From: Patescibacteria group bacterium
GTDB taxonomy: Bacteria; Patescibacteriota; Patescibacteriia; SG8-24; DYFX01
Length of the DNA: 64,000 bases
Reading direction: 5' to 3'
NCBI GenBank assembly: GCA_030583805.1
Contig: CP129476.1
Location: 1,030,657-1,094,656 of the forward strand
Shown here: positions 7,056 through 52,215 of the stretch, one piece after another
How the letters are laid out: every line of letters begins with the position of its first letter
How positions within the stretch are numbered: the first letter of the stretch is position 1
Position numbers and translations under genes: made by a program
The notes under the pieces: model-generated
What the model saw: only the letters and a program-made list of their open reading frames with translations
Told to the model about the DNA's origin: nothing
The model's database searches: none

Positions 7056-7760
7056 ATGGCCCAGGCGAAACCACAACTCATGCAGAGCAAGAAGCTCGCG
7101 GGAGGGAAGCCGTCCAGCTCCACCCAGCAGTTTTTGGACGTCGCCGAGATCCGCGAAGACGTGGTCGTCATGAAGGATGGCACGATGCGCGCCGTGCTGC
7201 TCGTTTCCAGCCTGAACTTTTCGTTGAAGTCGGAAGACGAGCAGGAGGCGATCATCCAGGGCTACGTTTCCTTCCTGAATTCTCTGGAATCGCCGGTGCA
7301 GATCCAGATTCAATCGCGCAAGCTGAACGTCGACGACTATTTGAACCGGCTCAAGGAACAGGAAAAAACGCAGACGAACGAGCTCTTGCGCACGCAGATC
7401 GCCGACTATCGCCAGTTCGTGAAAGAGCTGGTCGATCTCGGCGAGATCATGCAGAAAAAGTTTTTCATCGTCGTGCCGTACAACCCGGCTTCGTCGAAGC
7501 GCAAGGGATTCTTCGCGCGCCTGTCGGAAGTCCTGACGCCGCTCGTTTCGGCCCGCTTGCGCGAAGAGCAGTTCCGTCAGCGCAAGAAGGATATTCTGGT
7601 GAAGGTCGATTCCATCCGCGCAGGCCTGAATTCGATGGGGCTCACGAGCGTCATGCTCGACACGCAGGGCCTGATCGAGCTGTATTACACGGCCTTCAAC
7701 CCGCAATCGATGGAGCGGCAGAAGCTTGAAAAAATGGACGCCTTACGCGTCGAAGCCTGA
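7056..7760 (+). CDS. VirB4/TraC-family N-terminal segment; in-frame with the downstream VirB4 ORF and separated from it only by a TGA
   Basis: Strong RBS (AGGAGG) 7 nt upstream. Sequence (FLDVAEIREDVVVMKDGTMRAVLLVSSLNFSLKSEDEQEAIIQGYVSFLNSL...) resembles the extreme N-terminus of Firmicutes-type VirB4. The stop at 7758-7760 is in the same frame as the ATG at 7764. Confidence 0.55.
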   Translation: MAQAKPQLMQSKKLAGGKPSSSTQQFLDVAEIREDVVVMKDGTMRAVLLVSSLNFSLKSEDEQEAIIQGYVSFLNSLESPVQIQIQSRKLNVDDYLNRLKEQEKTQTNELLRTQIADYRQFVKELVDLGEIMQKKFFIVVPYNPASSKRKGFFARLSEVLTPLVSARLREEQFRQRKKDILVKVDSIRAGLNSMGLTSVMLDTQGLIELYYTAFNPQSMERQKLEKMDALRVEA

Positions 7761-7763
7761 TTT

Positions 7764-9689
7764 ATGGCCTTCAATCCCATTACGGCCACGCGCGAGGCAG
7801 CCGCTCCGAAACCGGAGAAGCCGAAGCTGACCGCCGAAGAAAAAAAACGCCTTGCGCAGGAAGAGCGCATCAAGCTCGAGGAAGAGCGCATTTACCGCAA
7901 GGGCGTCGTCACGCTGCGCGATTTGATCGCGCCGGCGGCGTTTGAAGTCAAATCGAACCTCGTGCGGCTGGGCGACCTCTACGCGCGCACCGTTTTCGTC
8001 GTTACCTACCCGCGCTATCTTTCGCTCGGTTGGTTCACGCCGATCATCAATTTTTCGGCGACGATGGATATCGGCATGTTCTTCTATCCCGTCCAGCCGG
8101 AGATCATTTTGAAACAGCTGAAAAACAAAGTAGGTATTTTGGAAGCCCAGATCATCGGCGACGCCGAGAAAGGCGCCGCGCGCGATCCGCTCCGCGAAAC
8201 GGCGTTGCGCGACATTGAAAAGCTGCGCGACGACCTGACGCAGGGGATCGAGCACTTCTTCCAATTCGCGCTGTACGTGACGATTTTCGCGCCGTCCGAA
8301 AAGGAACTCGACGACCTGACCAACCAGGTCGAAGGCATGTTCGGTTCGAAGCTGATCTACACCAAGCGCGTGCTCTACCAGTCGGAACAGGGTTTCAACT
8401 CGACCCTGCCGTCCGGGAACGACGAGCTCATGATCACCTTCAACATGAACACGAGCCCGATCGCTTCGGGTTTCCCGTTCGTCTCGGCCGACCTGACGTC
8501 CGACAATGGCATCCTCTACGGCATCAACCGTCACAACAACAGCCTGATCTTGTTCGACCGCTTCTCGCTGCAGAACGCCAACGCGGTCGTCTTCGCCACG
8601 TCCGGCGCGGGTAAGAGCTACACCGTGAAGCTCGAGGTGCTCCGTTCGCTCATGCTCGGCATCGAGGTGATCATCATCGACCCGGAAATGGAGTACAAGC
8701 ACCTTTCTGACGCGGTCGGCGGCACCTACATCAATATCTCGCTCGCTTCCGAATCGAAGCTCAACATCTTCGATTTGCCGCGCCCGATGGGGGAGGAAGT
8801 GCGTTCCGAAGACATCATCCGCTCGGCCGTCATCACGGTGAAAGGCCTCATGCGCATCATGTTCGGCAGCGTCACTACAGCCGAAGACTCGATCATCGAC
8901 CGCGCGCTTTTGGAAACGTACGCGAAAAAGGACATTATCCCGGGCGTCGACCTCGCCACCATCGAGCCGCCGATCCTTTCCGATTTCCAGCAGGTGCTCG
9001 AAGGCATCACGGGCACGGAGGATTTGCAGATCAAGCTCCGCAAGTACACTGAAGGCACCTTCGCCGGACTTCTCAACTCGCCGACGACGGTCGAAATGAA
9101 CAACAAGCTCGTCGTCTTCAGCGTCCGCGACCTCGAAGACGAATTGCGCCCGCTTGGCGTCTACACGATCGTGAACTACATTTGGAACGTCGTCCGCTCG
9201 GAACGTAAAAAGCGCATCCTAGTGATCGACGAAGCCTGGTGGCTCATGCAGAACGACGACTCGGCGAAATTCATCTTCGCCCTGGTCAAGCGCTGCCGCA
9301 AATATTTCTTGGGCGTCACGACGATCACGCAGGACGTCAACGACTTCCTGCGCTCGCCTTACGGCCAGGCGATCGTCACCAACTCCGCGCTCCAGATCCT
9401 CCTCAAGCAGTCGGCAGCCTCGATCGATCTCGTCCAAAAGACGTTCTTGCTGACGGAAGGCGAGAAGTACCTGCTGCTCGAAGCCGGCGTCGGCGAAGGC
9501 ATTTTCTTCGCGGGTTCGCGGCACGCTGCCATCAAAGTCGTCGCTTCGTACGCCGAAGACCAAATCATTACGTCTGATCCCCGCCAGCTACTTGAGATCG
9601 AAAATGCCAAAAAAGAATTGGATGAACAGCTCATCCAGGCCTCCGAGAATCCCGGATCGCCTGCGAATCCCGCTCAACAACCCGCATAA
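7764..9689 (+). CDS. virB4: VirB4/TraC/CagE-family conjugal transfer ATPase (C-terminal ~3/4)
   Basis: Walker A (VVFATSGAGKSYTVK), Walker B (ILVIDEAWWLM), the LIAP...GWF region and a C-terminal ATPase core; typical VirB4 architecture. Confidence 0.85.
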   Translation: MAFNPITATREAAAPKPEKPKLTAEEKKRLAQEERIKLEEERIYRKGVVTLRDLIAPAAFEVKSNLVRLGDLYARTVFVVTYPRYLSLGWFTPIINFSATMDIGMFFYPVQPEIILKQLKNKVGILEAQIIGDAEKGAARDPLRETALRDIEKLRDDLTQGIEHFFQFALYVTIFAPSEKELDDLTNQVEGMFGSKLIYTKRVLYQSEQGFNSTLPSGNDELMITFNMNTSPIASGFPFVSADLTSDNGILYGINRHNNSLILFDRFSLQNANAVVFATSGAGKSYTVKLEVLRSLMLGIEVIIIDPEMEYKHLSDAVGGTYINISLASESKLNIFDLPRPMGEEVRSEDIIRSAVITVKGLMRIMFGSVTTAEDSIIDRALLETYAKKDIIPGVDLATIEPPILSDFQQVLEGITGTEDLQIKLRKYTEGTFAGLLNSPTTVEMNNKLVVFSVRDLEDELRPLGVYTIVNYIWNVVRSERKKRILVIDEAWWLMQNDDSAKFIFALVKRCRKYFLGVTTITQDVNDFLRSPYGQAIVTNSALQILLKQSAASIDLVQKTFLLTEGEKYLLLEAGVGEGIFFAGSRHAAIKVVASYAEDQIITSDPRQLLEIENAKKELDEQLIQASENPGSPANPAQQPA

Positions 9690-11365: not shown

Positions 11366-11466
11366 CGGCATTCCTCCCTTCGGACGGGGCAAGAATAGCA
11401 GAAACGACCCAAAAGTCAACGCCCCGGTTTGCTTTCCCGCCGTTTTTGCGTAGGATGATGGAGCGT

Positions 11467-16572: not shown

Positions 16573-16616
16573 CGACTACTCGCACAGCCTACCCCATGAG
16601 CCCCGGCCTGTCAACC

Positions 16617-19744: not shown

Positions 19745-21049
19745 CTAAAATAGCGCGGTCAAAGCATTTTTCAGGTGAGGAGAATTTTTCGGCGTGATGA
19801 CCTGGCTGAATTGAAGGCGCTTGGCTTCCGCTTCGCGCTTGTCGACGAACGTGACGGGCCGCAGCTCGCCGCCCAGCCCGACTTCGCCGAAAGCGGCGAG
19901 CGAGGAGGGGAGCGGCTTGCCGGAAAGCGCCGAGACGACGGCCAGGACGACGGCGGCATCGGCAGCGGGTTCTTTCACCTTGTAGCCGCCGGCCACGTTG
20001 ATATGGATGTCGTGGGTTTGCGTCGGTACGCCGAGGCGCTCGGACAATACGGCGAGCAGCACTTGCAGGCGATTGGCGTCGAAACCGGAAGCGCGGCGCT
20101 GTGGGTAGCCGAATGTCGTGCGGCTCGCGAGCGCTTGGATCTCGACCAGGATCGGTCGCGTGCCTTCCATGATGCAGGTGACGACGGAACCGGGAACGTC
20201 TTTCGAGCGATCATGCAAAAAGAAGGAAGACGGGTTGGCGACTTCTTTGAGACCGGCTGCCGTCATCTCGAAAACGCCGACTTCGTCGGTGGCGCCGAAG
20301 CGGTTTTTGGCGGTGCGGAGCAGGCGGTAGTTGGAGGAGCGGTCGCCTTCGAACGAGACCACGACGTCGACGAGGTGCTCGAGCGTTTTCGGACCTGCGA
20401 CGTCGCCGTCCTTCGTGACTTGTCCGACGAGCAGCATCGGTACGCCACTCCTCTTGGCGAACTCCATGAGCTGCGCGGTCAGGGCGCGGATCTGAGACGC
20501 GCCACCTTGGGCGCCTGCTGCTTCGGGGGAGGAGAGCGTCTGGATCGAGTCGATAATCACGAGCGAAGGCTTTTCGGCTTCGATCGTGGCGAGAATGGTC
20601 GAGATATCCGTTTCCGATTGGAACTTGAGGCTTGAGGCCGCCAAGCCGAGGCGCTCGAAACGCAGCGCGACCTGCTCGGCCGATTCTTCCCCGGAGGCAT
20701 AGAGCACGTTCGGTAGGGAAGAGGCGACTTGAAGGAGCAGCGTTGATTTGCCGATGCCCGGTTCTCCGGAGAGCAGGACGAGCGATCCCGGAACGACGCC
20801 GCCGCCCAGCACGCGGTCGAATTCGGCGATGCCTGTCGAACGATGAGCCGTTTTCGAGCCTTTTAACTCGGCAAGCGAGAATGTCTTTCCGGGGCGGCCT
20901 GCGGCAGCCGTCGGTTTTTTCGCTTGGGGAACGGATGCGGCCTCGGCCACGGTGCCCCAGCCTCCGCATTCCAAACAACGCCCGCTCCACTTGGTGGACT
21001 GGGCGTCGCATTTGGTGCAGATGAAGAGCGTTTTCGCGGCCGTTGTCAT
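19745..21049 (-). CDS. radA: DNA repair protein RadA/Sms
   Basis: N-terminal C4 zinc finger (CTKCDAQSTKWSGRCLECGGWG), Walker A GEPGIGKST, KNRFG motif, C-terminal Lon-protease-like domain. Confidence 0.9.
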   Translation of the reverse strand: MTTAAKTLFICTKCDAQSTKWSGRCLECGGWGTVAEAASVPQAKKPTAAAGRPGKTFSLAELKGSKTAHRSTGIAEFDRVLGGGVVPGSLVLLSGEPGIGKSTLLLQVASSLPNVLYASGEESAEQVALRFERLGLAASSLKFQSETDISTILATIEAEKPSLVIIDSIQTLSSPEAAGAQGGASQIRALTAQLMEFAKRSGVPMLLVGQVTKDGDVAGPKTLEHLVDVVVSFEGDRSSNYRLLRTAKNRFGATDEVGVFEMTAAGLKEVANPSSFFLHDRSKDVPGSVVTCIMEGTRPILVEIQALASRTTFGYPQRRASGFDANRLQVLLAVLSERLGVPTQTHDIHINVAGGYKVKEPAADAAVVLAVVSALSGKPLPSSLAAFGEVGLGGELRPVTFVDKREAEAKRLQFSQVITPKNSPHLKNALTALF

Positions 21050-21086
21050 GAGCGGAGCGTACCAGGAAATGCGGCGAACGTGTCAA

Positions 21087-22265
21087 CTAGTCCGGCGACC
21101 AGGCGCTGATCAAAGGGATGAGGCGCGAGCCGCACTCGCTTTTAACGCACCACGTGCCGCTGCGCGCGCGACTCTTCTCGTCACCTCGTCCGCCGCCGCC
21201 GCCCTGCACAACCTGCATTTTGCCGCCGGAAGCCCACCCCATGAAAATCACGGCGTGTGCGCCGACAAGGTCTTCGTTGCCATTATAGATAACGACGCGG
21301 TCGCCGGGCCGGAGTGAATTGGCCCAGCCATCAGGCCAGTTCGAAGGAAGTCTGCCGGCGGTTTTTTCGCTGTTCAAGTAGTCTCGGACTTTCGCAACGG
21401 CGGCCGAGGCCGTGTCGACGCATTCTCCGACCGGCCGCGCTTTCCCTGGGTACTCCTTGTTCACCCCGCAGCGCCAGCCGAAGAGGAATTTTCTTTGCGT
21501 TCGTGAAACGCTGAAAATGCTCCGGCCTTTTCCCAGATCGTTGCAGTTGCCGTCTTTGGAATTGAGGCAGGAAACGGTTCCGACGCCGGCGAGAGCGGTG
21601 ATGGTGCCGGCGGTGTTTCCGCAAGAACCCCAGTTGACGTTGCAGGCATCGGCAATGTCGGCGATCTGGATGACGCGGTCGCGCGGGTTCGTCGCTGTTA
21701 CGACGCCGGCCATTTTGCTCTGGAACTCCGTTTTTGAAGCTTTGCCGGTCGTCGCGAACAGTTGAATGGGGCAGTTCGAATAGCGCGCGGTGTAGCTGCC
21801 CGGGACAGGACCGCTTCCTCCGACGCTCTCCGCGCTGTCGCCGTCCTGGGCGGTTTCGACGTTCGTCGTGCCCAATGTTTCATAGTCTGCAACCTCGGTT
21901 TCGATGCTCAGCAGCCTCAAGCCGTTGAACTCCACCAGGGCGGGATTGATCGTATAGAGCGTCACGTACGAACCGAGCGCCAAGACGACGCCGATCAAGG
22001 CGTCGACGATACGCTTCCGCGCTTTGCCGATCTTCCCGGCGTCGCCAGCCGAGGTCAGGTATTGGAAACCGCCGATGATCATCATGACTGCTGCGACCAC
22101 GCCGATGATCGAAATCATGAACGTGTAGACGCCCGACACGTATTGTCCGATCCATGGAACCGAATAATTTCCCGGCTCCGTGATCGACGTGAGTGTTACG
22201 CCGGGGATCGGTATCTCAAGCCGAGGCGCTTCCGCTTGGGCAAGTTTGGTGAGCGTTTCGTTCAT
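21087..22265 (-). CDS. Membrane-anchored putative peptidoglycan hydrolase: N-terminal two-helix VirB2/TrbC-like hairpin + C-terminal CHAP/NlpC-P60-like domain
   Basis: Two hydrophobic helices separated by a short basic loop (FMISIIGVVAAVMMIIGGFQYLTSAGDAGKIGKARKRIVDALIGVVLALGSYV). Cys...His pattern in the C-terminus (GECVDTASAAV ... PGDRVVIY...GAHAVIFMGW). Gly-rich tail. Confidence 0.4.
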   Translation of the reverse strand: MNETLTKLAQAEAPRLEIPIPGVTLTSITEPGNYSVPWIGQYVSGVYTFMISIIGVVAAVMMIIGGFQYLTSAGDAGKIGKARKRIVDALIGVVLALGSYVTLYTINPALVEFNGLRLLSIETEVADYETLGTTNVETAQDGDSAESVGGSGPVPGSYTARYSNCPIQLFATTGKASKTEFQSKMAGVVTATNPRDRVIQIADIADACNVNWGSCGNTAGTITALAGVGTVSCLNSKDGNCNDLGKGRSIFSVSRTQRKFLFGWRCGVNKEYPGKARPVGECVDTASAAVAKVRDYLNSEKTAGRLPSNWPDGWANSLRPGDRVVIYNGNEDLVGAHAVIFMGWASGGKMQVVQGGGGGRGDEKSRARSGTWCVKSECGSRLIPLISAWSPD

Positions 22266-41229: not shown

Positions 41230-41511
41230 ATGGCTAAGATGAGCAAGTCCCAGGTCGTCGCCGCGATGGCCGAAAAGAGCGGCCTGTCCAAGAAGGACGC
41301 CGGCATGTACCTCGAGAACCTCGCCAAGTTGGCGGAAACGGAAGTCAAGAAGGCCGGCGAGTTCGTTCTCCCGGGCTTCGGCAAGCTCGTGAAGATGCAC
41401 CGCAAGGAGCGCATGGGCCGCAACCCGGCCACCGGCCAGCCGGTCAAGATCGCCGCGAAGACGGTCGTGAAGTTCCGCCTCGCCAAGGCGATGAAGGACG
41501 CCGTTCTCTAG
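41230..41511 (+). CDS. hup: HU family DNA-binding protein
   Basis: Typical HU/IHF sequence (GFGKL...R...RNP.TG beta-arm); 93 aa. Confidence 0.9.
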   Translation: MAKMSKSQVVAAMAEKSGLSKKDAGMYLENLAKLAETEVKKAGEFVLPGFGKLVKMHRKERMGRNPATGQPVKIAAKTVVKFRLAKAMKDAVL

Positions 41512-41650
41512 TCGGCGTCCGAAACCGGCGATCTGCTTGGGCTTCGGCTCGTCGCACCGTTCCGGCGTACCGAGTACGCCTCACGGCTGCGACGGCCTCC
41601 AGCCCGGCGCATCTCATCCGGTTTCGAACGCCTCCATAGCATTGGAGATC

Positions 41651-41684
41651 GAAAAAAGACGGGCGAAAGCCCGTCTTTGTGTTC
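41651..41684. terminator. Intrinsic terminator (bidirectional)
   Basis: GAAAAAAGACGGGCGAAAGCCCGTCTTTGTGTT. Confidence 0.6.
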
Positions 41685-42130
41685 TAAGGCGTTTTGGGGT
41701 CTGCTCTGGCCGGCAGCCACCAAAAGGTTCCGGATTGCGTAATGGCGAGCCGATGTTCGCGCGTCCGCTGGCGAGGCGCCTCAAGCCACAAGGCGATGAG
41801 GGCGGATCGCAGGGCGACGGACATCTCCAGGGTGACGCGGCCATGTACTTCCACGTACAGGAGCGGCCCGCGCGTTCCGTTGCGGCTGCGTTCGTAGAAG
41901 GTCCTGATCTTCTCGGCGGCATCCCGTTTTTGGGTGATCTGCACGCCGATCGGATAGCGCAGCGCCGCCAGCGGCTCGATCTCCTGCACGAGGATATCGA
42001 TCTTGTAGACGTGATCGAGAGCGGTCGATTGCGTGAACTTCACGCCGAGCTCGCACAATCGATCCGACAGGCGAGCCTCGGTCGTTTCGCGGACGTAGCG
42101 CGGCGGTCTCTTTCGCGTGCGGCGGCTCAA
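41684..42130 (-). CDS. Hypothetical protein
   Basis: 148 aa ORF, no recognisable motif. Confidence 0.3.
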   Translation of the reverse strand: MSRRTRKRPPRYVRETTEARLSDRLCELGVKFTQSTALDHVYKIDILVQEIEPLAALRYPIGVQITQKRDAAEKIRTFYERSRNGTRGPLLYVEVHGRVTLEMSVALRSALIALWLEAPRQRTREHRLAITQSGTFWWLPARADPKTP

Positions 42131-42243
42131 GGGCGGCTCCTCGCAAGGGGATAGGCATACTCTAGCGTGTCGGCGTCCGGATGCAAGTTCCGGGGTTTCG
42201 GATTGACCGCAGGGGCCATATGGGATAGTTTGGAAAAACCTTT

Positions 42244-42630
42244 TTGCAAGGAGCCGCCGTGGATGACGAGGACAAGCGGCCTCCGCGGCTGCGACCGGAA
42301 GTCGAACTTCCTCCCGACTCGACCGACACGTTCCAGCTTTTCAAGACGCTGAAGAAAACCGACGGGCAGTACATCCGCTGGCGCCGCTTGCCGGCTCAGG
42401 GTTGGTACATGGGCGTTTGCGCCGGCCTGGCGAAGCGGTACGGCTTGCCGCGCTGGAAAGTGCGCCTCTATTTCTTGGCGGGACTTCTCGTTGCCGGCCT
42501 CCCGATCGTGTACTACGTGCTCGCCACGGCGTTCGTTCCCGCAGAAGGCGAAGACGGCGCGGCGAGCGCCGAAGGATACGAGGAAATCGAACTCGAAGAC
42601 GACTCAGCAGGCGAGGACCCGAAAACGTAG
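42244..42630 (+). CDS. PspC-domain membrane protein
   Basis: GWYMGVCAGLAKRYGLPRWKVRLYFL + TM helix is the PspC domain signature. Start may be the GTG at 42259 after AAGGAG. Confidence 0.6.
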   Translation: MQGAAVDDEDKRPPRLRPEVELPPDSTDTFQLFKTLKKTDGQYIRWRRLPAQGWYMGVCAGLAKRYGLPRWKVRLYFLAGLLVAGLPIVYYVLATAFVPAEGEDGAASAEGYEEIELEDDSAGEDPKT

Positions 42631-42704
42631 GGTCTTCTTTTCTTTTTCGGGGACGCTTGGTAGGCTCGGGGCAGTTCGAAACGCACCTTACGAAAGGATT
42701 CCCG

Positions 42705-43532
42705 ATGGAGACCCAACGCGCGACCGCGCTGCTCTCGGACGTGACGGAAAGCTACGACCGCCTGACGGAAGACGAGCTCAGGAATCTCGGCATCGTGCTG
42801 GGCGCCTACCGTTCGTTCCGAGGCAACCGCCGCGGCCTTCTGGCCTACGTCAGCATGCCGATCACGAGCGGCAAGAGGTACTTCGACGTGCTGACGGAGC
42901 ACGGCGTGACGAGCGCGGAAGAACTGGCCGCCAAGGCCGGCAAGGACGCGCTCTACGAGCTCGTCATCAAGCCGAACATCCGGGAAGGCGTCGCCTTCGC
43001 CGATCAGCTTGGCGAGACGCGCAAGGACCTTCTCTTCATCGCGCCCTCGGTGTTCGAGGCGAAGAAGTGGCGGTGGTCGCAGGACGCCTACATGTCGCTC
43101 TGGTACCGCGTGATCGGCGAGCTGACCGGCAAGCACTACCTCATGGACGGCTGGGAGTACTCGACCGGCGGCGTGAAGGAAGTCATGTTCACGGTTCTCA
43201 TGCAGAACCAGGCGTTTCTCGACGCCTTCCGCATGAAGGATTTCCTGCCCGACGTGCCGGAGGAACGTCTCCGTGAAGAGTACTGGGCGATGCGCGAGGT
43301 TCGCATCTACGACGCCCAGGGGCAAGATATCAACGTCATCAAGGCGGTCGAGATGATCGTTGCGGCAGTCGCGGATCTCAGGAAGCGCGGACTTCCGTGC
43401 CAGGAGCTCATTCCTCCGACGATCCGCATGGCCGACTCGGTCATCAGCTTGGACACGGGTCGGTTGCCGATTTCGTGGTACGACCGCCTCTTCGACGCGA
43501 AGGAAGCGTTGCTCAACAGCGCTCGATCGTGA
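42705..43532 (+). CDS. Hypothetical protein
   Basis: 275 aa, start chosen at METQRAT; intrinsic terminator 43536-43560. Confidence 0.4.
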   Translation: METQRATALLSDVTESYDRLTEDELRNLGIVLGAYRSFRGNRRGLLAYVSMPITSGKRYFDVLTEHGVTSAEELAAKAGKDALYELVIKPNIREGVAFADQLGETRKDLLFIAPSVFEAKKWRWSQDAYMSLWYRVIGELTGKHYLMDGWEYSTGGVKEVMFTVLMQNQAFLDAFRMKDFLPDVPEERLREEYWAMREVRIYDAQGQDINVIKAVEMIVAAVADLRKRGLPCQELIPPTIRMADSVISLDTGRLPISWYDRLFDAKEALLNSARS

Positions 43533-43591
43533 CAGCGACCCTCCTCGGGTCGTTTTTTCTTTTATGAAAAAACGGCCTCGTGCGAGACCGT

Positions 43592-43843
43592 TCAGTTGAG
43601 CATGTGCCGCGGCACGCGCGGCGTCTTCGGGCGATGGTCCATCATGTAGATCGCCGCCGGGAGGGCGAAGAGCCAGACGTAGGCCCAGATGGCGAATGAG
43701 ATGCCGATGCTGAGCGCGGGCGGCAGGGGGGTCGCCAGCACGAGCGGCAACGATGCGAAGAACGTCACGATCGCGAGGCCGATCAGGGCGGGGAGCGCGC
43801 CCTTCCGCCGATTGGCGAGAAAGTGCTTCCAGATCTCGAGCAT
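43592..43843 (-). CDS. Small hypothetical membrane protein
   Basis: Start at the ATG preceded by AAGGAGG; 2 TM helices. Confidence 0.35.
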   Translation of the reverse strand: MLEIWKHFLANRRKGALPALIGLAIVTFFASLPLVLATPLPPALSIGISFAIWAYVWLFALPAAIYMMDHRPKTPRVPRHMLN

Positions 43844-43946
43844 GGAACCTCCTTTTGGTTGCGTGGCGAGAGCATAGCGCGGATGCCCGCCCGCGTCCAG
43901 GTTCCAAGCCGGGAGACTTTCGTTTTTTCTGCTATGCTGTAAGCAC

Positions 43947-45276: not shown

Positions 45277-45597
45277 ATGAAGAAGCGGAACCTGTTCAGC
45301 GAACGCGTCCTCGAGCTCGTCCTCTCGATCCCGAAAGGCCGCGTCACGACCTACGGCCGCATCGCCCGCCAAGCCGGCGGCGGCACCATGGCCGCCCAAA
45401 GCATCACCGCGATCCTCTGGAAAGCCGAACAGCGCGGGGTGAAGAATATTCCGTATCATCGCATCGTGTATGCGGATGGGAGGATTTGGGTTGATCCGAA
45501 GCGGAGGGGGGAGAGGTTGGCGTTGTATAAGAAGGAGGGGATTCAAATAGGCAAAGACGATAAGGTGGTGGATTTTAAGAAGAAATTGCCTCAATGA
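45277..45597 (+). CDS. MGMT-family protein (alkyltransferase-like DNA-binding domain; Cys replaced by Tyr: PYHRIV)
   Basis: IPKGRVTTYGRIA...NIPYHRIV matches the MGMT DNA-binding domain; canonical PCHRV is altered. Confidence 0.6.
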   Translation: MKKRNLFSERVLELVLSIPKGRVTTYGRIARQAGGGTMAAQSITAILWKAEQRGVKNIPYHRIVYADGRIWVDPKRRGERLALYKKEGIQIGKDDKVVDFKKKLPQ

Positions 45598-45601
45598 ACG
45601 T

Positions 45602-46276
45602 ATGGCTTATCTGAAATGGTTGGAGAATGGCTACTTAAAGAAGCAATCCGGGAAATACTACCTGCTGCTCATTGCGTTCTCTATAGCGGGATTTATTTTT
45701 TCTCGAAGCTCACTTTCCCAGAGGTTTCCATTCACGTTCGCATTGGTCGGTATATTTGTCGTTGTAGTTTATATCCTTGCGTACTTCAAATATTTCAAAA
45801 AGATTCTGCATTTTGAAAAAGGGATAGATGGAGAATGGGCTGTTGCCAAAGTCTTGTGTGACTTGCCAGAGTCGCACTTTGGCTTCCATGATGTACGCGT
45901 GCCAGGCATGTGGGGGAATATTGATTTTGTCGTCGTTACACCTACGCATGTTTTTGCACTCGAGGTAAAAAACACGCTGTGGTATTCAACAAAGTCTCAT
46001 GTCAAACAGGCAAAACAAGGAGCCATGTTCTTGAATAGGTGGCTGCGGCAACAGATTGGTCACGACATCTTCGTAAATCCAGTCGTCGTGTTTTCTCATA
46101 GTAAAAATAAGTGGCGGCATACCGGCATTCATGATCGTGCCGGGGTGGTAAGACTGGACGGCCTCAACGCCTTTGTTTTGGATAAATCCGGACGGTCTTA
46201 TGACACAGGTCTGATGATCCCGGTCGTGCAAGCGCTTAAAAGGTTTACGCCTGTTCATAAGGTTGTTTGCGACTAA
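45602..46276 (+). CDS. NERD (nuclease-related domain) protein with N-terminal TM
   Basis: EWAVAKVL...HDVRVPG..GNIDFVVVTPTHVFALEVKN pattern of the NERD domain. Confidence 0.65.
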   Translation: MAYLKWLENGYLKKQSGKYYLLLIAFSIAGFIFSRSSLSQRFPFTFALVGIFVVVVYILAYFKYFKKILHFEKGIDGEWAVAKVLCDLPESHFGFHDVRVPGMWGNIDFVVVTPTHVFALEVKNTLWYSTKSHVKQAKQGAMFLNRWLRQQIGHDIFVNPVVVFSHSKNKWRHTGIHDRAGVVRLDGLNAFVLDKSGRSYDTGLMIPVVQALKRFTPVHKVVCD

Positions 46277-46316
46277 AAGGAAGTGAGCAGGCGCAAGCCC
46301 GTACTTAAATCTAGCC

Positions 46317-46354
46317 TTTGCCCCGTTCGCCCTTCTTCCTGTAGGATCGGGTAC
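46317..46354. repeat. 38-bp direct repeat copy 1 (duplicate of dnaE promoter region)
   Basis: TTTGCCCCGTTCGCCCTTCTTCCTGTAGGATCGGGTAC; 36/38 identical to 48656-48693. Confidence 0.75.
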
Positions 46355-46465
46355 GTCGTTAGTGAACCTTAATAAATCCCTTTGGTGCCAGGTACGGATA
46401 ACCGTGAATTTTAGAAAAAACATGCTACACTAAATCTAGTTGTGAAGTGTTAATTCGCACACACT

Positions 46466-46861
46466 ATGAATCCAGTGGTCAAAAAGTTTGGAATCGCGAT
46501 TGGTGCCATTGTAGTTCTGTTTATCGTTCTCAGTAGATTTTCAATCGTGGAATCTAGGTATGTATGCCTGGGGGATTTAACAAGTGATACCGGAGTTCGG
46601 TCTACTAATGTCTATTTAAAACTCCAGAAGTATAGGTGGTGGGTTCATCTATGGAATGATTCCTACGGTGCATTGAATTGGGAAATTCCAAATACCTGGA
46701 CTGAGTACTACGAGCGTATTGAAGACGTTGGAGATCATCTTCAATTTTTTGAAATGTATCCCAGTAGGAAATCCAAGGGAAATTTCTCGCTACTCAGCGG
46801 AGCGATCAAAATTGTAACTCCTTTGGGAAATTTTCAAGGAGATTGCAGGATTGCTGAGTAA
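46466..46861 (+). CDS. Hypothetical protein with N-terminal TM (island cargo)
   Basis: 131 aa, low-GC. Confidence 0.4.
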   Translation: MNPVVKKFGIAIGAIVVLFIVLSRFSIVESRYVCLGDLTSDTGVRSTNVYLKLQKYRWWVHLWNDSYGALNWEIPNTWTEYYERIEDVGDHLQFFEMYPSRKSKGNFSLLSGAIKIVTPLGNFQGDCRIAE

Positions 46862-46961
46862 CATACTAACTTAAAAATTTGAAAGCCACTCCCAGATAGG
46901 GATCTTTCCCCGTTAGTGCCAGGCACTGGCAAAAAATGGCACTATGGGGATGTTCTAGTAT

Positions 46962-48137
46962 ATGCGTGGAAAAGCAGCGATAAATCCAAAAATTTTGGTC
47001 TGGGCGAGGGAGGATTTTGGTATTTCTATTGAAGCAGTGGCCAAAGGGATTGGACAAAAAAATAAAAAAATCATTGAGCTTTGGGAGAAGGGTGAAGATG
47101 CCCCATCATTTGCTCAACTGGAATCACTTGCTAGATTTTATAAAAGACCGACAGCCTTTTTCTATTTACCCGAACCCCCAACCCCGACAAAATTACCAAA
47201 CGACTTTCGGACAGCGCTATCAAAAAATGTTGAAATTTTACATAAAGAAACCAGACTTGCGGTTCGTAGAGCTGAGTATGTCCAGCAAGTTTTGAAAGAG
47301 ATCGAGCAAGAAGGTCTCGAAGAATTTAAGCTAAAGACGACACTGGCCGATGATTCAAACCTCCTCGTTAGGGAAGTTGAAATCCTGGGCAATTTAGATA
47401 GGGAACACTTTCGAAAAAGCACACAGGATTCAAGAACGGCTCTTGCATTCTGGAGAAACTTTATTGAAGAAAAAATTGGTGTCATTACGCTATCTCTCCC
47501 TTTCCCTCTTAAAGAGGCGAGAGGTTTTTCATTGTTTGATGCGACGCATCCTGTAGTTGTTATTAATTCTCATGACACTGAAAACGGAAAAATATTTTCG
47601 TTATTCCATGAACTAGGACATCTTGCATTAAGAGGCTCGGGTATCTGCCTGCCTTCCGAGGTGGGAACCAGCAACAGTTTTCCTTCAAAAATTGAGCAGT
47701 TTTGTAACTCCTTCGCAGGAAGTTTTTTGGTACCAAATAACTCGTTAAATAACTATAAGCAAAAAAAATCCTTTGACGTTGAGAATTTTGATTCAACTAT
47801 TGATTCTACAGCCAAGTATTTCAGAGTAAGCAAGTTTGTAATTTTGGCTAGATTACTGCAGCTACATGAAATTAACAAGAATATTTTTTCTGAAAAAACA
47901 CAGCAATATAGAGAAGAATATGAAAAAATTAAAAATCTTGTAGAAAAGAAGAAGTTTGCGGTTAAGCAAGAGTATCTTTGTGTAAGTGCGAACGGACCCC
48001 GCTTCACCACAAAAGTATTAGCCAGCTACAACGAGAAGAAGATCACTTTGAGTGATGTTTCACGTTTGTTAAACGTGGGTGTTCGGCATATTAAAAATGT
48101 CGAAAGCTATATTTATAAACGAGCGCGGAATACGTAA
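46962..48137 (+). CDS. XRE-family HTH domain fused to ImmA/IrrE-type zinc metallopeptidase (COG2856-like)
   Basis: N-terminal HTH (ILVWAREDFGISIEAVAKGIG); HEXXH motif FSLFHELGHLAL. Confidence 0.7.
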   Translation: MRGKAAINPKILVWAREDFGISIEAVAKGIGQKNKKIIELWEKGEDAPSFAQLESLARFYKRPTAFFYLPEPPTPTKLPNDFRTALSKNVEILHKETRLAVRRAEYVQQVLKEIEQEGLEEFKLKTTLADDSNLLVREVEILGNLDREHFRKSTQDSRTALAFWRNFIEEKIGVITLSLPFPLKEARGFSLFDATHPVVVINSHDTENGKIFSLFHELGHLALRGSGICLPSEVGTSNSFPSKIEQFCNSFAGSFLVPNNSLNNYKQKKSFDVENFDSTIDSTAKYFRVSKFVILARLLQLHEINKNIFSEKTQQYREEYEKIKNLVEKKKFAVKQEYLCVSANGPRFTTKVLASYNEKKITLSDVSRLLNVGVRHIKNVESYIYKRARNT

Positions 48138-48139
48138 GT

Positions 48140-48652
48140 ATGATTGAGCTCAAAACGGCTCAACAACCAGCAGCTCGTTATTGCTTAGATGCTTGTGCAC
48201 TTATTGATTTTGATAAGGTAAGGTTCCCACACGATCACTTTGAGGTTGTCTGGAAAGAGCTCAATTCTTTGGTAGAAAGTGGCGCTATGATTTCTCCGCG
48301 TGAGGTACGGAGAGAAGTTGTTACGGAAGTAAAAGAAAAGGACTGGGTTAACAAGTGGGCTAGTACCAGGAAACAAATGTTTATTAATCCGGATGAAGAA
48401 CAGGAAAAGATTGTTACTCTCGTTCTCACCAAATTTCCTAAAATGTTAAATAAGTACCAAAGCGGGCCCTTTGCTGATCCATGGGTTGTGGCTTTGGCCA
48501 AAGCAAGGAATCTGACCGTTATTACGTCAGAACTACCTGGAGGGAAAGGTGCGTGGAAAATCCCAGATATTTGTCGTGAGTTAGGTGTTGCATGCTTTGA
48601 CATTACTGATTTGATTCGGGCAGAAAACTGGAAATTTAATGCGAAAATTTAG
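48140..48652 (+). CDS. DUF4411-like PIN-type putative nuclease, partner of the HTH-ImmA gene
   Basis: 170 aa; acidic residues in a PIN-like arrangement (YCLDACALID...D); 3-nt spacing to the upstream gene. Confidence 0.5.
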   Translation: MIELKTAQQPAARYCLDACALIDFDKVRFPHDHFEVVWKELNSLVESGAMISPREVRREVVTEVKEKDWVNKWASTRKQMFINPDEEQEKIVTLVLTKFPKMLNKYQSGPFADPWVVALAKARNLTVITSELPGGKGAWKIPDICRELGVACFDITDLIRAENWKFNAKI

Positions 48653-48655
48653 TGT

Positions 48656-48693
48656 TTTGCCCCGTTCGCCCTTCCTCCTGTAAGATCGGGTAC
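48656..48693. repeat. 38-bp direct repeat copy 2 / dnaE promoter region (TGTAAGAT extended -10)
   Basis: TTTGCCCCGTTCGCCCTTCCTCCTGTAAGATCGGGTAC, 10 nt upstream of the dnaE ATG. Confidence 0.75.
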
Positions 48694-48702
48694 ACTTGAT
48701 CT

Positions 48703-51700
48703 ATGGGCACCAAATTCACCCACCTCCACACCCACTCCCACTACAGCCTCCTCGAGGCCTTGCCTCAGGTTGATAAGTTGGTGAAATTCGCCAAGGTCCA
48801 GGGGGCGACGGCGGTGGGGCTGACGGATAACGGGAACATGTTCGGGGTGATCGAATTCGTGCAGGAGTGCCAGAAGGCGGAGATAAAACCCATAATAGGT
48901 TACGACGCTTTTGTTGCAGTTGAGACGATTGAATTGAAAAGACATAGAATTGATGACAAAAATACCCGCCTCGTTTTATTAGCCGAGACGATGGAGGGGT
49001 ACAAGAATTTGATGAAGCTCGCTTCGGCGGCGTACTTGGACGGCTTCTACTATCGTCCGCGTATCGACCGGAACCTGCTCCGCCAGCACGGGAAGGGGAT
49101 CATCGCCCTCGCGGGGCCGCGCAGCGATATCGGCAAGGCGCTCACCGACGGCGACATGGAAAAGGCGCGGGAGCGTGCCAAGGAGTACGTCGAGATTCTC
49201 GGCAAGGACAATTTTTTCTTCGAGCTTTTGTACCAGCCCGACAACCCGACGCAGAAGGAAACGAACGACGCCTTCGTCGCGCTCGGCAAAGAGCTCGGCA
49301 TCGGCGTCGTCGCCTCGCGCAACGTTTATTATTTGAAACCGGAGCAAGCCGAGGCGCGCTCGCTGCTTTTGTGCATCAAGGACAACCGCACGCTCGAAGA
49401 GCGAGAGCGGTCGGTCGCGGCCGACAACGATCTTTCGATGTCGTCGCCGGAGGAAATCGAAGAAGCGTTCAAGGAGATTCCCGAAGCGCTCGAGAACAAC
49501 GCCCGCATCGTCGAGCGCTGCAACGTCCAGCTCGAGCTCGGCAAATGGAACTTCCCGATCTACGAAATTCCCGACGGGCTCACGGCCATCGACTACCTGA
49601 GAAAAATTTCTTTCGAGCGGCTGCCGCGCCTGCTCAAGCGCCCGCTCGAGCAGCGCGAGATCGACCGCTTGAATTACGAAATCGATATTGTCGAGAAGAA
49701 GGGCTACGCCACGTACTTCCTGGTCGTGGCCGACTACGGTTCGTGGGCGCGCAGCCAGGGCATCGTGCTGACCACGCGAGGTTCGGCTGCCGGCTCTCTC
49801 ATGGCCTACGCGATCGGCATCGTCACGGTCAATCCGCTCGACTACAATCTGCCGTTCGAGCGCTTCCTGAACCCGCAGCGACCGTCGGCGCCTGATATCG
49901 ATATGGACTTCGCCGACCACCGTCGCGGCGAGGTGTTGGAATACGTGAAAAGGAAATACGGGGCCGACCACGTGGCGCAGATCTGTACCTTCGGAACGAT
50001 GGCCGCGCGCGCTTCGATGCGCGACGTCGGCCGTGCCTTGGGTTATCCGGTCGCGTTTTGCGATCAAATCGCCAAGACGATCCCGTTCGGCCAGCAAGGC
50101 TTCGCCATGACGATCGACCGCGCCTTGAACGAGACGCCTGATTTCAAGCGTCGCTACGACACCGAGCCGGAAGTGAAACGCCTCGTCGACCTGGCCAAGC
50201 AGATCGAGGGCAACGCGCGGCACTGCTCGGTCCACGCCGCCGGCGTCGTCATCTCCGACAAGCCGCTCGTCGAATACACACCGCTGCAGCGCGAAGCGGG
50301 CGGCGAAGCCATCATCACTCAATACGAAATGCATGCGGTCGAAGACGCCGGCGTGCTCAAGATGGACTTCCTGGGCATCCGCAACCTCTCGATTTTGGAA
50401 TACGCGATCGCGCTCGCCAAGCGCACCAAAGGCGTCGAAGTCGATTTGGTGCACATGGATTTGAAGGACAAGAAAACGTTCGACATGCTCGCCGCCGGAA
50501 AAACGATGGGCCTCTTCCAGCTGAACGGCGACGGCATGACCAAGTACCTGATGCAGCTCAAGCCCACGGTCATCGAAGACATCATGGCTATGGTCGCGCT
50601 CTACCGTCCGGGCCCGATCGACATCATCCCGGAGTTCATCAGGCGCAAGCAGAACCCGAGGCTCATCACGTACCTCGATCCGCGCATGAAGGAATATTTG
50701 GGCATGTCGTACGGCATGCTCGTCTATCAGGACGACGTGCTCATGACCGCCATCAACCTGGCGGGTTACGACTGGCTCGAAGCCGACAAGTTCCGCAAGG
50801 CCATGGGCAAGAAGATTCCGGAAGAAATGGCCAAGCAGGAAATCAAGTTCAAGGAAGGCTGCGTCGAGCACGGCATGACCAAGGCCAAGACGGAAGAGCT
50901 TTGGGAACTCATCAAGCCGTTCGCGGCCTACGGCTTCAACAAGGCGCACGCCGCCTCGTACGGCATCGTCGCGTATCAAACGGCCTACATGAAGGCCAAC
51001 TTTCCGGCCGAGTACATGACGGCGCTCATGACGGCGGAATCCGGCGATCTCGACACCATCGCCCTCGCGGTCAAAGAGTGCAACGCGCTCGGCATCAACG
51101 TCTTGCCGCCGGACGTGAACAGCTCCGAGGCCGATTTCACGTACATCGACGACCACACGATCCGCTTCGGTCTCGGCGTCATCAAGGGCCTCGGCATCGA
51201 TACGGTCAACGCCATCATCGAGGAACGCAAGGCGAGCGGCGCCTTTAAAGACCTCGCCGATTTCGCGGGACGCATTCCCGGCAAGGCGTTCAACAAGAAG
51301 TCGCTCGAAGCCCTGGCCAAGTCCGGCGCGCTCGACGCGCTCGGCGAACGCAACCAGATCGTCGAGAACTCCGACGTCCTCACGACCTACAACAAGAATC
51401 TCCTCAAGGAACGCGACAACGGCCAGTCGAATCTTTTCGCCTTCGTGGTGCCCGCCGGCACCGAGCTCGTGCCGACGCTCGGCCTCCGCAACGTCCCGCC
51501 GGCCACGCAGCGCAAGAGGCTTGATTGGGAAAAGGAACTGCTCGGCCTCTACGTCAGCGCGCATCCGTTCGAAGAGATGGCGAAGGAGTTCGACAAGCTG
51601 CTCATGCCGATTTCCCAGGCGTTCACGCTGCCGGAAAAATCTCCGATCAGGGTCGGCGGCACCGTCACGGCGGTCAAGCAAATCGTCACCAAAAAATCGG

Positions 51701-52215
51701 GCGAGCCGATGCTCTTCGCGACGATCACCGACCCGACCGGCACGGTCGAGTGCTTGGTGTTCCCGAGCGTCTTCAAGGAGAACGGCACGGCCTGGGTCGA
51801 GGGCGCGAACTTGGCGGTTACCGGACGCGTCTCGCGCAAGGACGACGAGTTCAAGATCCTCGCCGACCGCGGCTGGCCGCTCACGAGCGAAACGATCCCG
51901 GTCTACAAAGCGCATTTCAACGGCGAGGCGGTCAGCTCCGACATGATGCTTTCCATGCAGCGCCCGCGCGCCAAGCCGGGGAGCGGGGAAGTGCGCATCG
52001 TCCTGCCGTCCAAGATGCCGCCGTCCGCCGTGGCGGCGCTCAAGGCCGCGCTGGCGAAGTACCCCGGCGCCACCCACGTCGCGCTCGACGTCCGTTCCGA
52101 GGGCGGCTACCAGCGCGTCGAGACGTCGTTCCAAATCGACCCTTCCCCGGACGCCGTCGCCGCCATCGAAAAGCAAGTCGGCATGGGCAACGTGAAGGTC
52201 CAGCTTCCTGTATAA
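48703..52215 (+). CDS. dnaE: DNA polymerase III subunit alpha
   Basis: PHP domain (THLHTHSHYSLLE), polymerase core, OB-fold; 1170 aa. Confidence 0.95.
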   Translation: MGTKFTHLHTHSHYSLLEALPQVDKLVKFAKVQGATAVGLTDNGNMFGVIEFVQECQKAEIKPIIGYDAFVAVETIELKRHRIDDKNTRLVLLAETMEGYKNLMKLASAAYLDGFYYRPRIDRNLLRQHGKGIIALAGPRSDIGKALTDGDMEKARERAKEYVEILGKDNFFFELLYQPDNPTQKETNDAFVALGKELGIGVVASRNVYYLKPEQAEARSLLLCIKDNRTLEERERSVAADNDLSMSSPEEIEEAFKEIPEALENNARIVERCNVQLELGKWNFPIYEIPDGLTAIDYLRKISFERLPRLLKRPLEQREIDRLNYEIDIVEKKGYATYFLVVADYGSWARSQGIVLTTRGSAAGSLMAYAIGIVTVNPLDYNLPFERFLNPQRPSAPDIDMDFADHRRGEVLEYVKRKYGADHVAQICTFGTMAARASMRDVGRALGYPVAFCDQIAKTIPFGQQGFAMTIDRALNETPDFKRRYDTEPEVKRLVDLAKQIEGNARHCSVHAAGVVISDKPLVEYTPLQREAGGEAIITQYEMHAVEDAGVLKMDFLGIRNLSILEYAIALAKRTKGVEVDLVHMDLKDKKTFDMLAAGKTMGLFQLNGDGMTKYLMQLKPTVIEDIMAMVALYRPGPIDIIPEFIRRKQNPRLITYLDPRMKEYLGMSYGMLVYQDDVLMTAINLAGYDWLEADKFRKAMGKKIPEEMAKQEIKFKEGCVEHGMTKAKTEELWELIKPFAAYGFNKAHAASYGIVAYQTAYMKANFPAEYMTALMTAESGDLDTIALAVKECNALGINVLPPDVNSSEADFTYIDDHTIRFGLGVIKGLGIDTVNAIIEERKASGAFKDLADFAGRIPGKAFNKKSLEALAKSGALDALGERNQIVENSDVLTTYNKNLLKERDNGQSNLFAFVVPAGTELVPTLGLRNVPPATQRKRLDWEKELLGLYVSAHPFEEMAKEFDKLLMPISQAFTLPEKSPIRVGGTVTAVKQIVTKKSGEPMLFATITDPTGTVECLVFPSVFKENGTAWVEGANLAVTGRVSRKDDEFKILADRGWPLTSETIPVYKAHFNGEAVSSDMMLSMQRPRAKPGSGEVRIVLPSKMPPSAVAALKAALAKYPGATHVALDVRSEGGYQRVETSFQIDPSPDAVAAIEKQVGMGNVKVQLPV

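Follow-up and report, generated by a model that had tools for sequence, protein, structure and literature searches.

The predicted core promoter of dnaE, the essential gene for the DNA polymerase III alpha subunit, is present in two co-oriented copies of 38 bp in a 64,000-nt stretch of a Patescibacteria group bacterium genome (contig CP129476.1 of assembly GCA_030583805.1; hereafter the window). The right copy (P_R) lies directly before dnaE, and the left copy (P_L) points into foreign, low-GC cargo genes that separate dnaE from a conserved gene for an MGMT/Atl1-like DNA-binding protein (the MGMT-like gene). The locus adds a further case to the known defence hotspots flanked by core genes, with the twist that cargo lies on both sides of an essential-gene promoter and that this promoter is duplicated. 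We propose, with a probability of about 0.55, that the dnaE promoter was duplicated by recombination that stacked two cargo alleles at the hotspot, each allele bringing a promoter copy with it.

The left copy of the 38-mer, TTTGCCCCGTTCGCCCTTCTTCCTGTAGGATCGGGTAC, occupies positions 46317-46354 and the right copy, TTTGCCCCGTTCGCCCTTCCTCCTGTAAGATCGGGTAC, positions 48656-48693. They are identical at 36 of 38 nucleotides, the two substitutions splitting the pair into identical runs of 19, 7 and 10 bp, and identity drops abruptly beyond both edges. Between the end of the right copy and the start codon of dnaE (48703) lie 9 nt. When the window was searched on both strands with up to three mismatches, exactly two matches to the 38-mer family were found, versus 0.00 expected from 100 shuffles. 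Searches with the whole 38-mer and with half-sites, errors allowed, gave no third copy, full or partial, either beside the MGMT-like gene at the left end of the island or anywhere else in the window. The exact 38-mer core was found in one metagenome contig only (L081), there too directly 5' of dnaE. Both copies, which had been noted in the initial annotation, are borne out by the sequence and by two independent public assemblies: a Logan assembly from another sequencing run (L082) agrees with the window at 100% identity across 19.6 kb that include the two copies and the two junctions, and an assembly from a third run (L083), which includes the right copy only, matches the window base for base from the RmrA-like gene through the DUF4411 gene, P_R and dnaE. 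The search for further copies that the annotation had called for gave none more in the window, and the ten family members that we found all lie at the MGMT-dnaE locus. The reading of the 38-mer as a dispersed repeat was rejected, all ten members being at this one locus and the exact core standing before dnaE. The same assemblies bear on the possibility that a repeat-induced misjoin put foreign DNA upstream of dnaE. The source is a metagenome-assembled genome (MAG) and the GC content of the island departs from that of the genome, as such an artefact would have it; against this, L082 spans both junctions, L083 covers the segment from the RmrA-like gene to dnaE, and relatives carry analogous low-GC cargo at the same place. 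We consider an assembly artefact extremely improbable.

The right copy is the native upstream element of dnaE, as first annotated: the same element is found directly before dnaE in four relatives (L001, L081, L091 and L094), with a promoter-like layout. The 31-nt core of the element is unchanged in L001 and L081, whereas identity over the first 90 nt of dnaE is just 72-78%. More diverged copies of the element (referred to here as P) head cargo genes in L002, L084, L093 and L097. Ten copies of the element were aligned together with the radA promoter, giving 11 sequences. In this alignment a -35-like TT..C is invariant (TTGCCC, TTTCCC, TTTCCA, TTGTCC, TTGGCG, TTTACG, TTTACC), as is a GTTCGCC directly after it; the spacer is constant at 18 nt, and a -10-like TA..AT is nearly invariant (TAAGAT, TAATAT, TAGAAT, TAAAAT, TAGGAT). 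Both differences between P_L and P_R fall at positions that are variable among natural alleles. In every allele the conserved element has the same left edge as the repeat, and the right edge of the repeat (after GGGTAC) coincides with the end of homology in the cargo-heading copies of L084 and L002. From this sigma-70-type conservation we infer promoter activity, and we predict that the 38-mer serves as the dnaE core promoter and spans the interval between the -35 box and the approximate transcription start. Transcription would begin around 7 nt past the -10 box, at the right edge of the repeat, producing a leader that is about 9 nt long and lacks a Shine-Dalgarno sequence. Because the repeat is the unit preserved by selection in all alleles, its length of 38 bp is explained without a recombination core.

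The initial annotation had also described an extended -10 in the right copy. The sequence TGTAAGAT is indeed present at 48679-48686, but its TG abuts TAAGAT directly instead of forming the canonical TGnTATAAT, and a canonical extended -10 was rejected for that reason. Two tRNA promoters of the window have the same form as the 38-mer and provide clear sigma-70-type references for this organism: TTTGCT-17-TAGGAT for tRNA-Ser (11425-11466, plus strand) and TTGACA-17-TAGGCT for tRNA-Arg (16573-16615, minus strand), both 10-12 nt before the mature 5' end. As the tRNA-Ser promoter uses TAGGAT, the -10 hexamer of P_L, which results from an A-to-G change, is already in use in this genome. The conserved GTTCGCC in the spacer of the 38-mer suggests that an additional factor is bound there. 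A layout like that of the dnaE promoter was observed before radA (sms), on the minus strand at window positions 21044-21091, which reads TTGACA-CGTTCGCC-GCATTTCCTGG-TACGCT-6 nt-ATG. Here a canonical -35 stands where the -35 was assigned in the 38-mer, with the CGTTCGCC box right after it. On this modest evidence, from a single extra locus, GTTCGCC may be a shared regulatory box or operator of replication and repair genes. The 8-mer CGTTCGCC alone is not enriched in the window.

Eight relatives could be read through the locus (L001, L002, L081, L084, L091, L093, L094 and L097). Together with the window they provide nine cargo sets, the MGMT-like gene and dnaE flanking a different low-GC cargo at each locus. 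Domain assignments show that this cargo is rich in defence and toxin-antitoxin (TA) genes across the relatives and the window. It comprises an Mrr_cat + nSTAND3 protein in L001; an Mrr_cat + NACHT/nSTAND4 protein and a DUF4419 protein in L002; Fic and a type I restriction-modification system in L094; a HEPN protein in L084; a SocA_Panacea (Panacea TA) pair and a KAP NTPase in L097; and small proteins without assigned identity in L081, L091 and L093. Cargo is found in two slots. Slot A, between the MGMT-like gene and the promoter, is filled in four relatives (L001, L081, L091, L094), where the cargo ends 6-10 nt from P. Slot B, between the promoter and the dnaE ATG, is filled in the four others (L002, L084, L093, L097), where dnaE starts 3-20 nt past the cargo stop. 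In the window the gene order is MGMT, NERD (nuclease-related domain), P_L, a gene for a transmembrane (TM) protein, an RmrA-like helix-turn-helix (HTH)/M78 peptidase gene, a DUF4411 PIN toxin gene, P_R and dnaE, all on the plus strand. The left copy is a second, co-oriented copy heading the TM/RmrA/DUF4411 cargo, in agreement with the initial annotation. The window is the only resolved locus with both slots filled (NERD in A; TM, RmrA-like and DUF4411 in B) and with two full promoter copies. L001, L081, L091 and L094 have a single promoter copy each, none of them at the left end. L002 has a 12-nt P remnant, AAGAgCGGGTAg, before dnaE and a full P-like copy ahead of its cargo, and thus reads as a degenerate second case of the promoter-cargo-promoter arrangement. 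We conclude that the MGMT-dnaE interval is a real and fairly ordinary core-gene-flanked hotspot for defence and TA islands, not a self-mobile element.

Relatives also differ in mosaic fashion in the neighbourhood 5' of the MGMT-like gene. In L001 (4562-6832 and 7068-7304) there is a 2.3-kb insertion with a 601-aa protein, plus a 134-aa protein resembling the DUF1801 proteins of L084 and L085. L084 carries DUF2200, DUF1801 and glyoxalase genes (7426-8978) that are absent from the window, and window positions 41511-43924 have no counterpart at the nucleotide level in either L001 or L002. Several of these mosaic boundaries share a terminator-like hairpin, GGAACTCCCCGAAAGGGGAGTTTTTGT.

How could two promoter copies have come to bracket cargo at this hotspot? 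In the proposed stacking of two alleles, recombination would have occurred between related strains. The recipient would have had the order MGMT-NERD-P-dnaE, and a donor of the order MGMT-...-M-TM-RmrA-DUF4411-P-dnaE, where M is an intergenic motif described below (the M box), would have been joined to it downstream of the recipient promoter. The right crossover would lie within dnaE, anchored by homology, and the left junction would be an illegitimate or microhomology join just past the recipient promoter, 9 nt before the ATG. Both cargoes would retain their own promoter copy, and the 38 bp would represent the part kept by selection in every allele. Such stacking accounts for the 3-nt gap between the DUF4411 gene and P_R, which is as tight as the cargo-to-P gaps of the slot-A relatives. 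It also accounts for the M box located 24 nt past P_L: the motif belongs to the left cargo part of L093, L002 and L084, which fits a donor of the same clade. The difference in GC content between the two cargo units (0.447 for the NERD gene, 0.38-0.42 for the second cargo), the sharp edges of the repeats and the position of the P_L/P_R differences at naturally variable sites are likewise accounted for.

Several observations weigh against this scenario. Exact look-ups of the NERD and TM proteins and homologue searches gave no empty site (NERD-P-dnaE) and no donor allele, and the nearest homologues of the RmrA-like and NERD proteins are only 38% and (non-self) 58% identical; we therefore infer the recombination route, and the parent of each copy, from the layout of the locus. 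The same two edges of P delimit different cargoes, which could be read as site specificity. In L093, two M boxes identical at 22 of 22 positions bracket a single 190-aa gene, and a duplicated 230-nt unit (84-89% identity) surrounds the cassette, so that a repeat-generating insertion mechanism may operate in the hotspot. As for the promoter itself, a simple sigma-70 consensus scan scores the 38-mer 8/12, below threshold, and the invariant GTTCGCC within the spacer goes beyond a plain promoter model.

Since P-like promoters head the cargo in L002, L084, L093 and L097, and L002 keeps a P remnant before dnaE, the window might instead preserve an old two-promoter architecture, in which an ancestral promoter before the cargo slot (P') and the promoter before dnaE were homogenised to 36/38 identity by gene conversion. 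We regard this as unlikely. Upstream of P', the relatives have 85 nt of conserved sequence in common that the window lacks: the sequence left of P_L has no significant homology to the region upstream of P' in L093 and L084 (p 0.37-0.85). Moreover, identity between P' and P in relatives is no more than about 60%, and four relatives are single-copy.

A single crossover in a shared segment yields a repeat-insert-repeat structure with chimeric copies. Integration of the Campbell type, by which a circle carrying the cargo and one 38-mer entered through a single homologous crossover within the 38 bp, would fit the two mismatches, which could mark the recipient and donor alleles. We nevertheless give it a low probability, as 38 bp is at the lower limit for RecA-dependent exchange, an earlier event would be needed to place the promoter on the circle, and we saw no sign of a replicon or circular form and no match to plasmids or phages.

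The repeats had initially been taken for attL/attR-type scars or an unusually long target duplication. In the former case the 38-mer would be an attachment core, duplicated when a recombinase encoded elsewhere or since lost inserted a 2.3-kb element. Direct repeats with sharp edges do flank a unit of foreign composition, and several different cargoes stop at exactly the same element edges in relatives. Nevertheless, no integrase or transposase domain was detected by Pfam in the four island proteins or in the eight cargo sets of relatives, and no tRNA, transfer-messenger RNA (tmRNA) or known Rfam RNA family lies at or near the repeats. The best terminal inverted repeat of the 2.3-kb unit is 6 nt long, a length equalled in 1436 of 2000 shuffles, and the whole island likewise has none above chance. 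The exact 38-mer core is absent from 2.9 million viral contigs, and the 2.3-kb unit has no blastn match in phage and plasmid collections. Relatives with one cargo have one copy, never in an MGMT-proximal position, and the DNA to the left of the left copy (the NERD gene) is itself foreign. Target duplications of transposons and insertion sequences typically measure 2-14 bp, versus 38 bp here. Finally, promoter edges coincide with repeat edges in all alleles, as expected from selection on a promoter rather than on a recombination core. Neither the scar nor the long target duplication was thus borne out; we hold an attL/attR origin to be improbable, and a product of site-specific integration or transposition, or any new mobile element or mechanism, is not supported. 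The claim that the repeats define the inserted unit stands in part: they bracket the right-hand 2.3 kb, but the foreign island measures 3.1 kb and also takes in the NERD gene, which precedes the first copy. A more speculative view, to which we give very little credence, is that the 38-bp promoter is a dedicated capture site, at whose two edges a trans-acting system encoded elsewhere would insert cargo recurrently and with precision, perhaps together with the M box and the tRNA-like unit described below. If true, it would be an integron-like, promoter-coupled cassette platform without a linked integrase, tying defence genes to an essential gene in the candidate phyla radiation (CPR).

Coordinates of the features of the MGMT-dnaE locus in the window.
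Feature	Position	Strand	Evidence
MGMT/Atl1-like DNA-binding protein gene, conserved left flank	45277..45597	+	Pfam DNA_binding_1, 1.3e-12; syntenic in L001, L002, L081, L084, L091, L093, L094, L097
Whole low-GC island, from MGMT-like gene to dnaE-proximal promoter copy	45598..48655	+	GC
NERD (nuclease-related domain) gene, cargo unit 1, left of first repeat	45602..46276	+	Pfam NERD, 6.5e-14
P_L, left copy of predicted dnaE core promoter, pointing into cargo	46317..46354	+	TTGCCC 46318-46323, TAGGAT 46342-46347
M box CCCTTTGGTGCCAGGTACGGATA, clade-specific intergenic motif	46378..46400	+	Matches in L093, L002, L084
TM gene, 131-aa protein with N-terminal membrane anchor, uncharacterised family	46466..46861	+	Family homologues
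Degenerate second M box (46909-46926) and palindrome TGCCAGGCACTGGCA (46917-46931), operator-like	46909..46931	+	15/18 identical; 31 nt upstream of RmrA-like gene
RmrA-like antitoxin/regulator, XRE-type HTH and M78 (ImmA/IrrE) zinc peptidase	46962..48137	+	PADLOC, Pfam
DUF4411 PIN-like nuclease, putative toxin	48140..48652	+	Pfam DUF4411, 3.6e-31; weak PIN match
P_R, right copy, predicted native dnaE core promoter	48656..48693	+	TTGCCC 48657-48662, TAAGAT 48681-48686
dnaE, DNA polymerase III alpha subunit, conserved right flank	48703..52215	+	Pfam PHP, DNA_pol3_alpha, finger, HHH_6 and OB domains

The island begins 1 nt past the stop codon of the MGMT-like gene and ends at the right repeat copy, with a GC content of 0.38-0.45 as compared to 0.61 in its flanks. 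Its nucleotide homology to relatives is confined to P and the M box. The RmrA-like protein (391 aa) matches the PADLOC RmrA model PDLC03949 over residues 7-379 (2.8e-24) as well as Pfam HTH_3 and Peptidase_M78, and direct reading of its sequence reveals an HELGH motif. The DUF4411 gene starts 2 nt past the RmrA-like stop codon, and P_R starts 3 nt past that of DUF4411. A fusion of HTH and DUF955 domains with DUF4411 downstream has been predicted to form a TA module (PMC5499597), and the RosmerTA defence family is defined by RmrA-type antitoxins paired with toxins of various kinds (10.1101/2022.05.11.491447; PMC10440598). Neither the DUF4411 protein nor the TM protein has a match in PADLOC, RmrT models included. 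Because the DUF4411 protein matches no RmrT model, the RmrA-like/DUF4411 pair, a predicted TA, is called RosmerTA-like here and not a member of the family. The TM protein has no Pfam match and belongs to a widespread family of 301 representative clusters (E<=0.001), all of about 130 aa. We rejected the TM protein as a fixed third TA component, its homologues being found elsewhere in unrelated contexts and not beside RmrA or DUF4411. Public gene predictions on the Logan contig, which is identical here (L082 7463-8722, corresponding to window 45602-46861), miss the NERD and TM genes; two minus-strand open reading frames of 79 and 145 aa are called instead, despite the clear Pfam match of NERD and the hundreds of homologues of TM. 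Gene calling was apparently misled by the low GC content of the island.

To the right of the island, DnaE has its closest matches in two Patescibacteria MAGs, with 93% identity to L001 (N-terminal 500 residues) and 90% to L002 (residues 1-305). Within dnaE, codons 61-93 (window 48883-48981) form a patch of about 100 nt with a GC content of 0.34, versus 0.60 in relatives. About 25 of its 33 codons have undergone synonymous G/C-to-A/T changes, leaving the protein almost unchanged, and the patch is not contiguous with the island. It is 0.68-0.75 identical to L001, L002 and L081, as compared to 0.85-0.92 among those three. The patch resembles a short tract acquired by recombination from a low-GC homologue, or else an AT-rich element under selection; searches of 80 DnaE loci and of viral contigs gave no donor.

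The M box (CCCTTTGGTGCCAGGYACGGATA, holding the palindrome GTGCCAGGCAC) recurs at cassette heads in the hotspot. Matches were found in L093 (944-965 and 1562-1583), L002 (5001-5024) and L084 (8507-8530), about 23-25 nt before an ATG in all three, and the layout of the motif is unlike that of a sigma-70 promoter. Just past the MGMT-like gene, relatives also carry a unit of about 230 nt (L093 693-921 and 1587-1816, L084 9345-9545, partial in L002 5023-5137) that is not present in the window. It contains a tRNA-like domain with a T arm (GGGTTCGAnnCCC), an encoded CCA and a 7-bp acceptor stem in which L093 and L084 differ by compensatory changes. On the 3' side of this domain are a canonical TTGACA-17-TACnGT promoter, a covarying segment complementary to the middle of the domain, and a strong terminator. 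ARAGORN did not identify the unit, and its matches to the Rfam tmRNA models are far below the gathering score; it may correspond to an undescribed small RNA.

All genes from the MGMT-like gene through dnaE are co-oriented. Terminator-like sites occur at chance level and inside genes, and none between genes is convincing. P_L probably drives transcription of the TM gene together with the TA pair, P_R keeping dnaE independently expressed. The TA pair is probably also under its own control, because a palindrome, TGCCAGGCACTGGCA, lies just upstream of the RmrA-like HTH gene. In the slot-B relatives, the promoter is predicted to drive the cargo with dnaE in the same operon, reliant on read-through. 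The limit of 19 bp on uninterrupted identity between P_L and P_R should lower the loss of cargo by recombination between them. It appears that cargo can wedge between an essential gene and its promoter, and that duplication of the promoter can uncouple the two again. To our knowledge, almost no promoters have been defined in Patescibacteria, and the alignment provides a comparative definition: TTGnCn, 18 nt, TAnnAT, a very short leader and no Shine-Dalgarno sequence. The MGMT-dnaE hotspot is also a site at which these tiny genomes keep and swap defence genes, and a practical place to seek new CPR defence systems.

The locus resembles several known systems. In the core defence hotspots of E. 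coli and Pseudomonas aeruginosa and in the minimal mobile elements of Neisseria, conserved flanks enclose strain-variable, mostly defence cargo. This cargo is foreign in composition and lacks mobility genes, and its exchange is thought to proceed via homologous recombination in the flanks. The MGMT-dnaE interval shares with these hotspots a constant flanking pair and a different defence cargo in each strain. It differs from them in being located in a Patescibacteria genome of about 1.2 Mb, next to an essential replication gene, with cargo on either side of a 38-bp promoter; half of the relatives' alleles put their cargo in an operon with dnaE, and in the window the promoter is duplicated. Homology-facilitated illegitimate recombination during natural transformation, as in Acinetobacter and Streptococcus pneumoniae, combines one homologous anchor with one illegitimate junction. 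An anchor in dnaE and an illegitimate junction would similarly give an insertion with sharp, repeat-free ends such as the one we propose here from the anatomy of the locus.

Genomic islands and prophages bounded by attL and attR also have direct repeats of tens of bp around foreign DNA beside a conserved gene, the gene-proximal copy restoring what insertion would separate. In contrast, no recombinase or tRNA/tmRNA target is present here, the repeat is a promoter and not a gene end, and single-cargo alleles are single-copy. As in the integron platform, where the promoter Pc lies next to attI, promoterless cargo is placed directly 3' of a resident promoter at a recurrent position; however, the locus lacks an integrase, attC-like sites and a cassette array, and its resident promoter belongs to an essential gene. 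Finally, the predicted TA pair shares with RosmerTA an HTH + M78 protein matching the PADLOC RmrA model and a small putative toxin gene 2 nt later, whereas the toxin candidate is here a DUF4411 (PIN-like) protein without a match to RmrT models.

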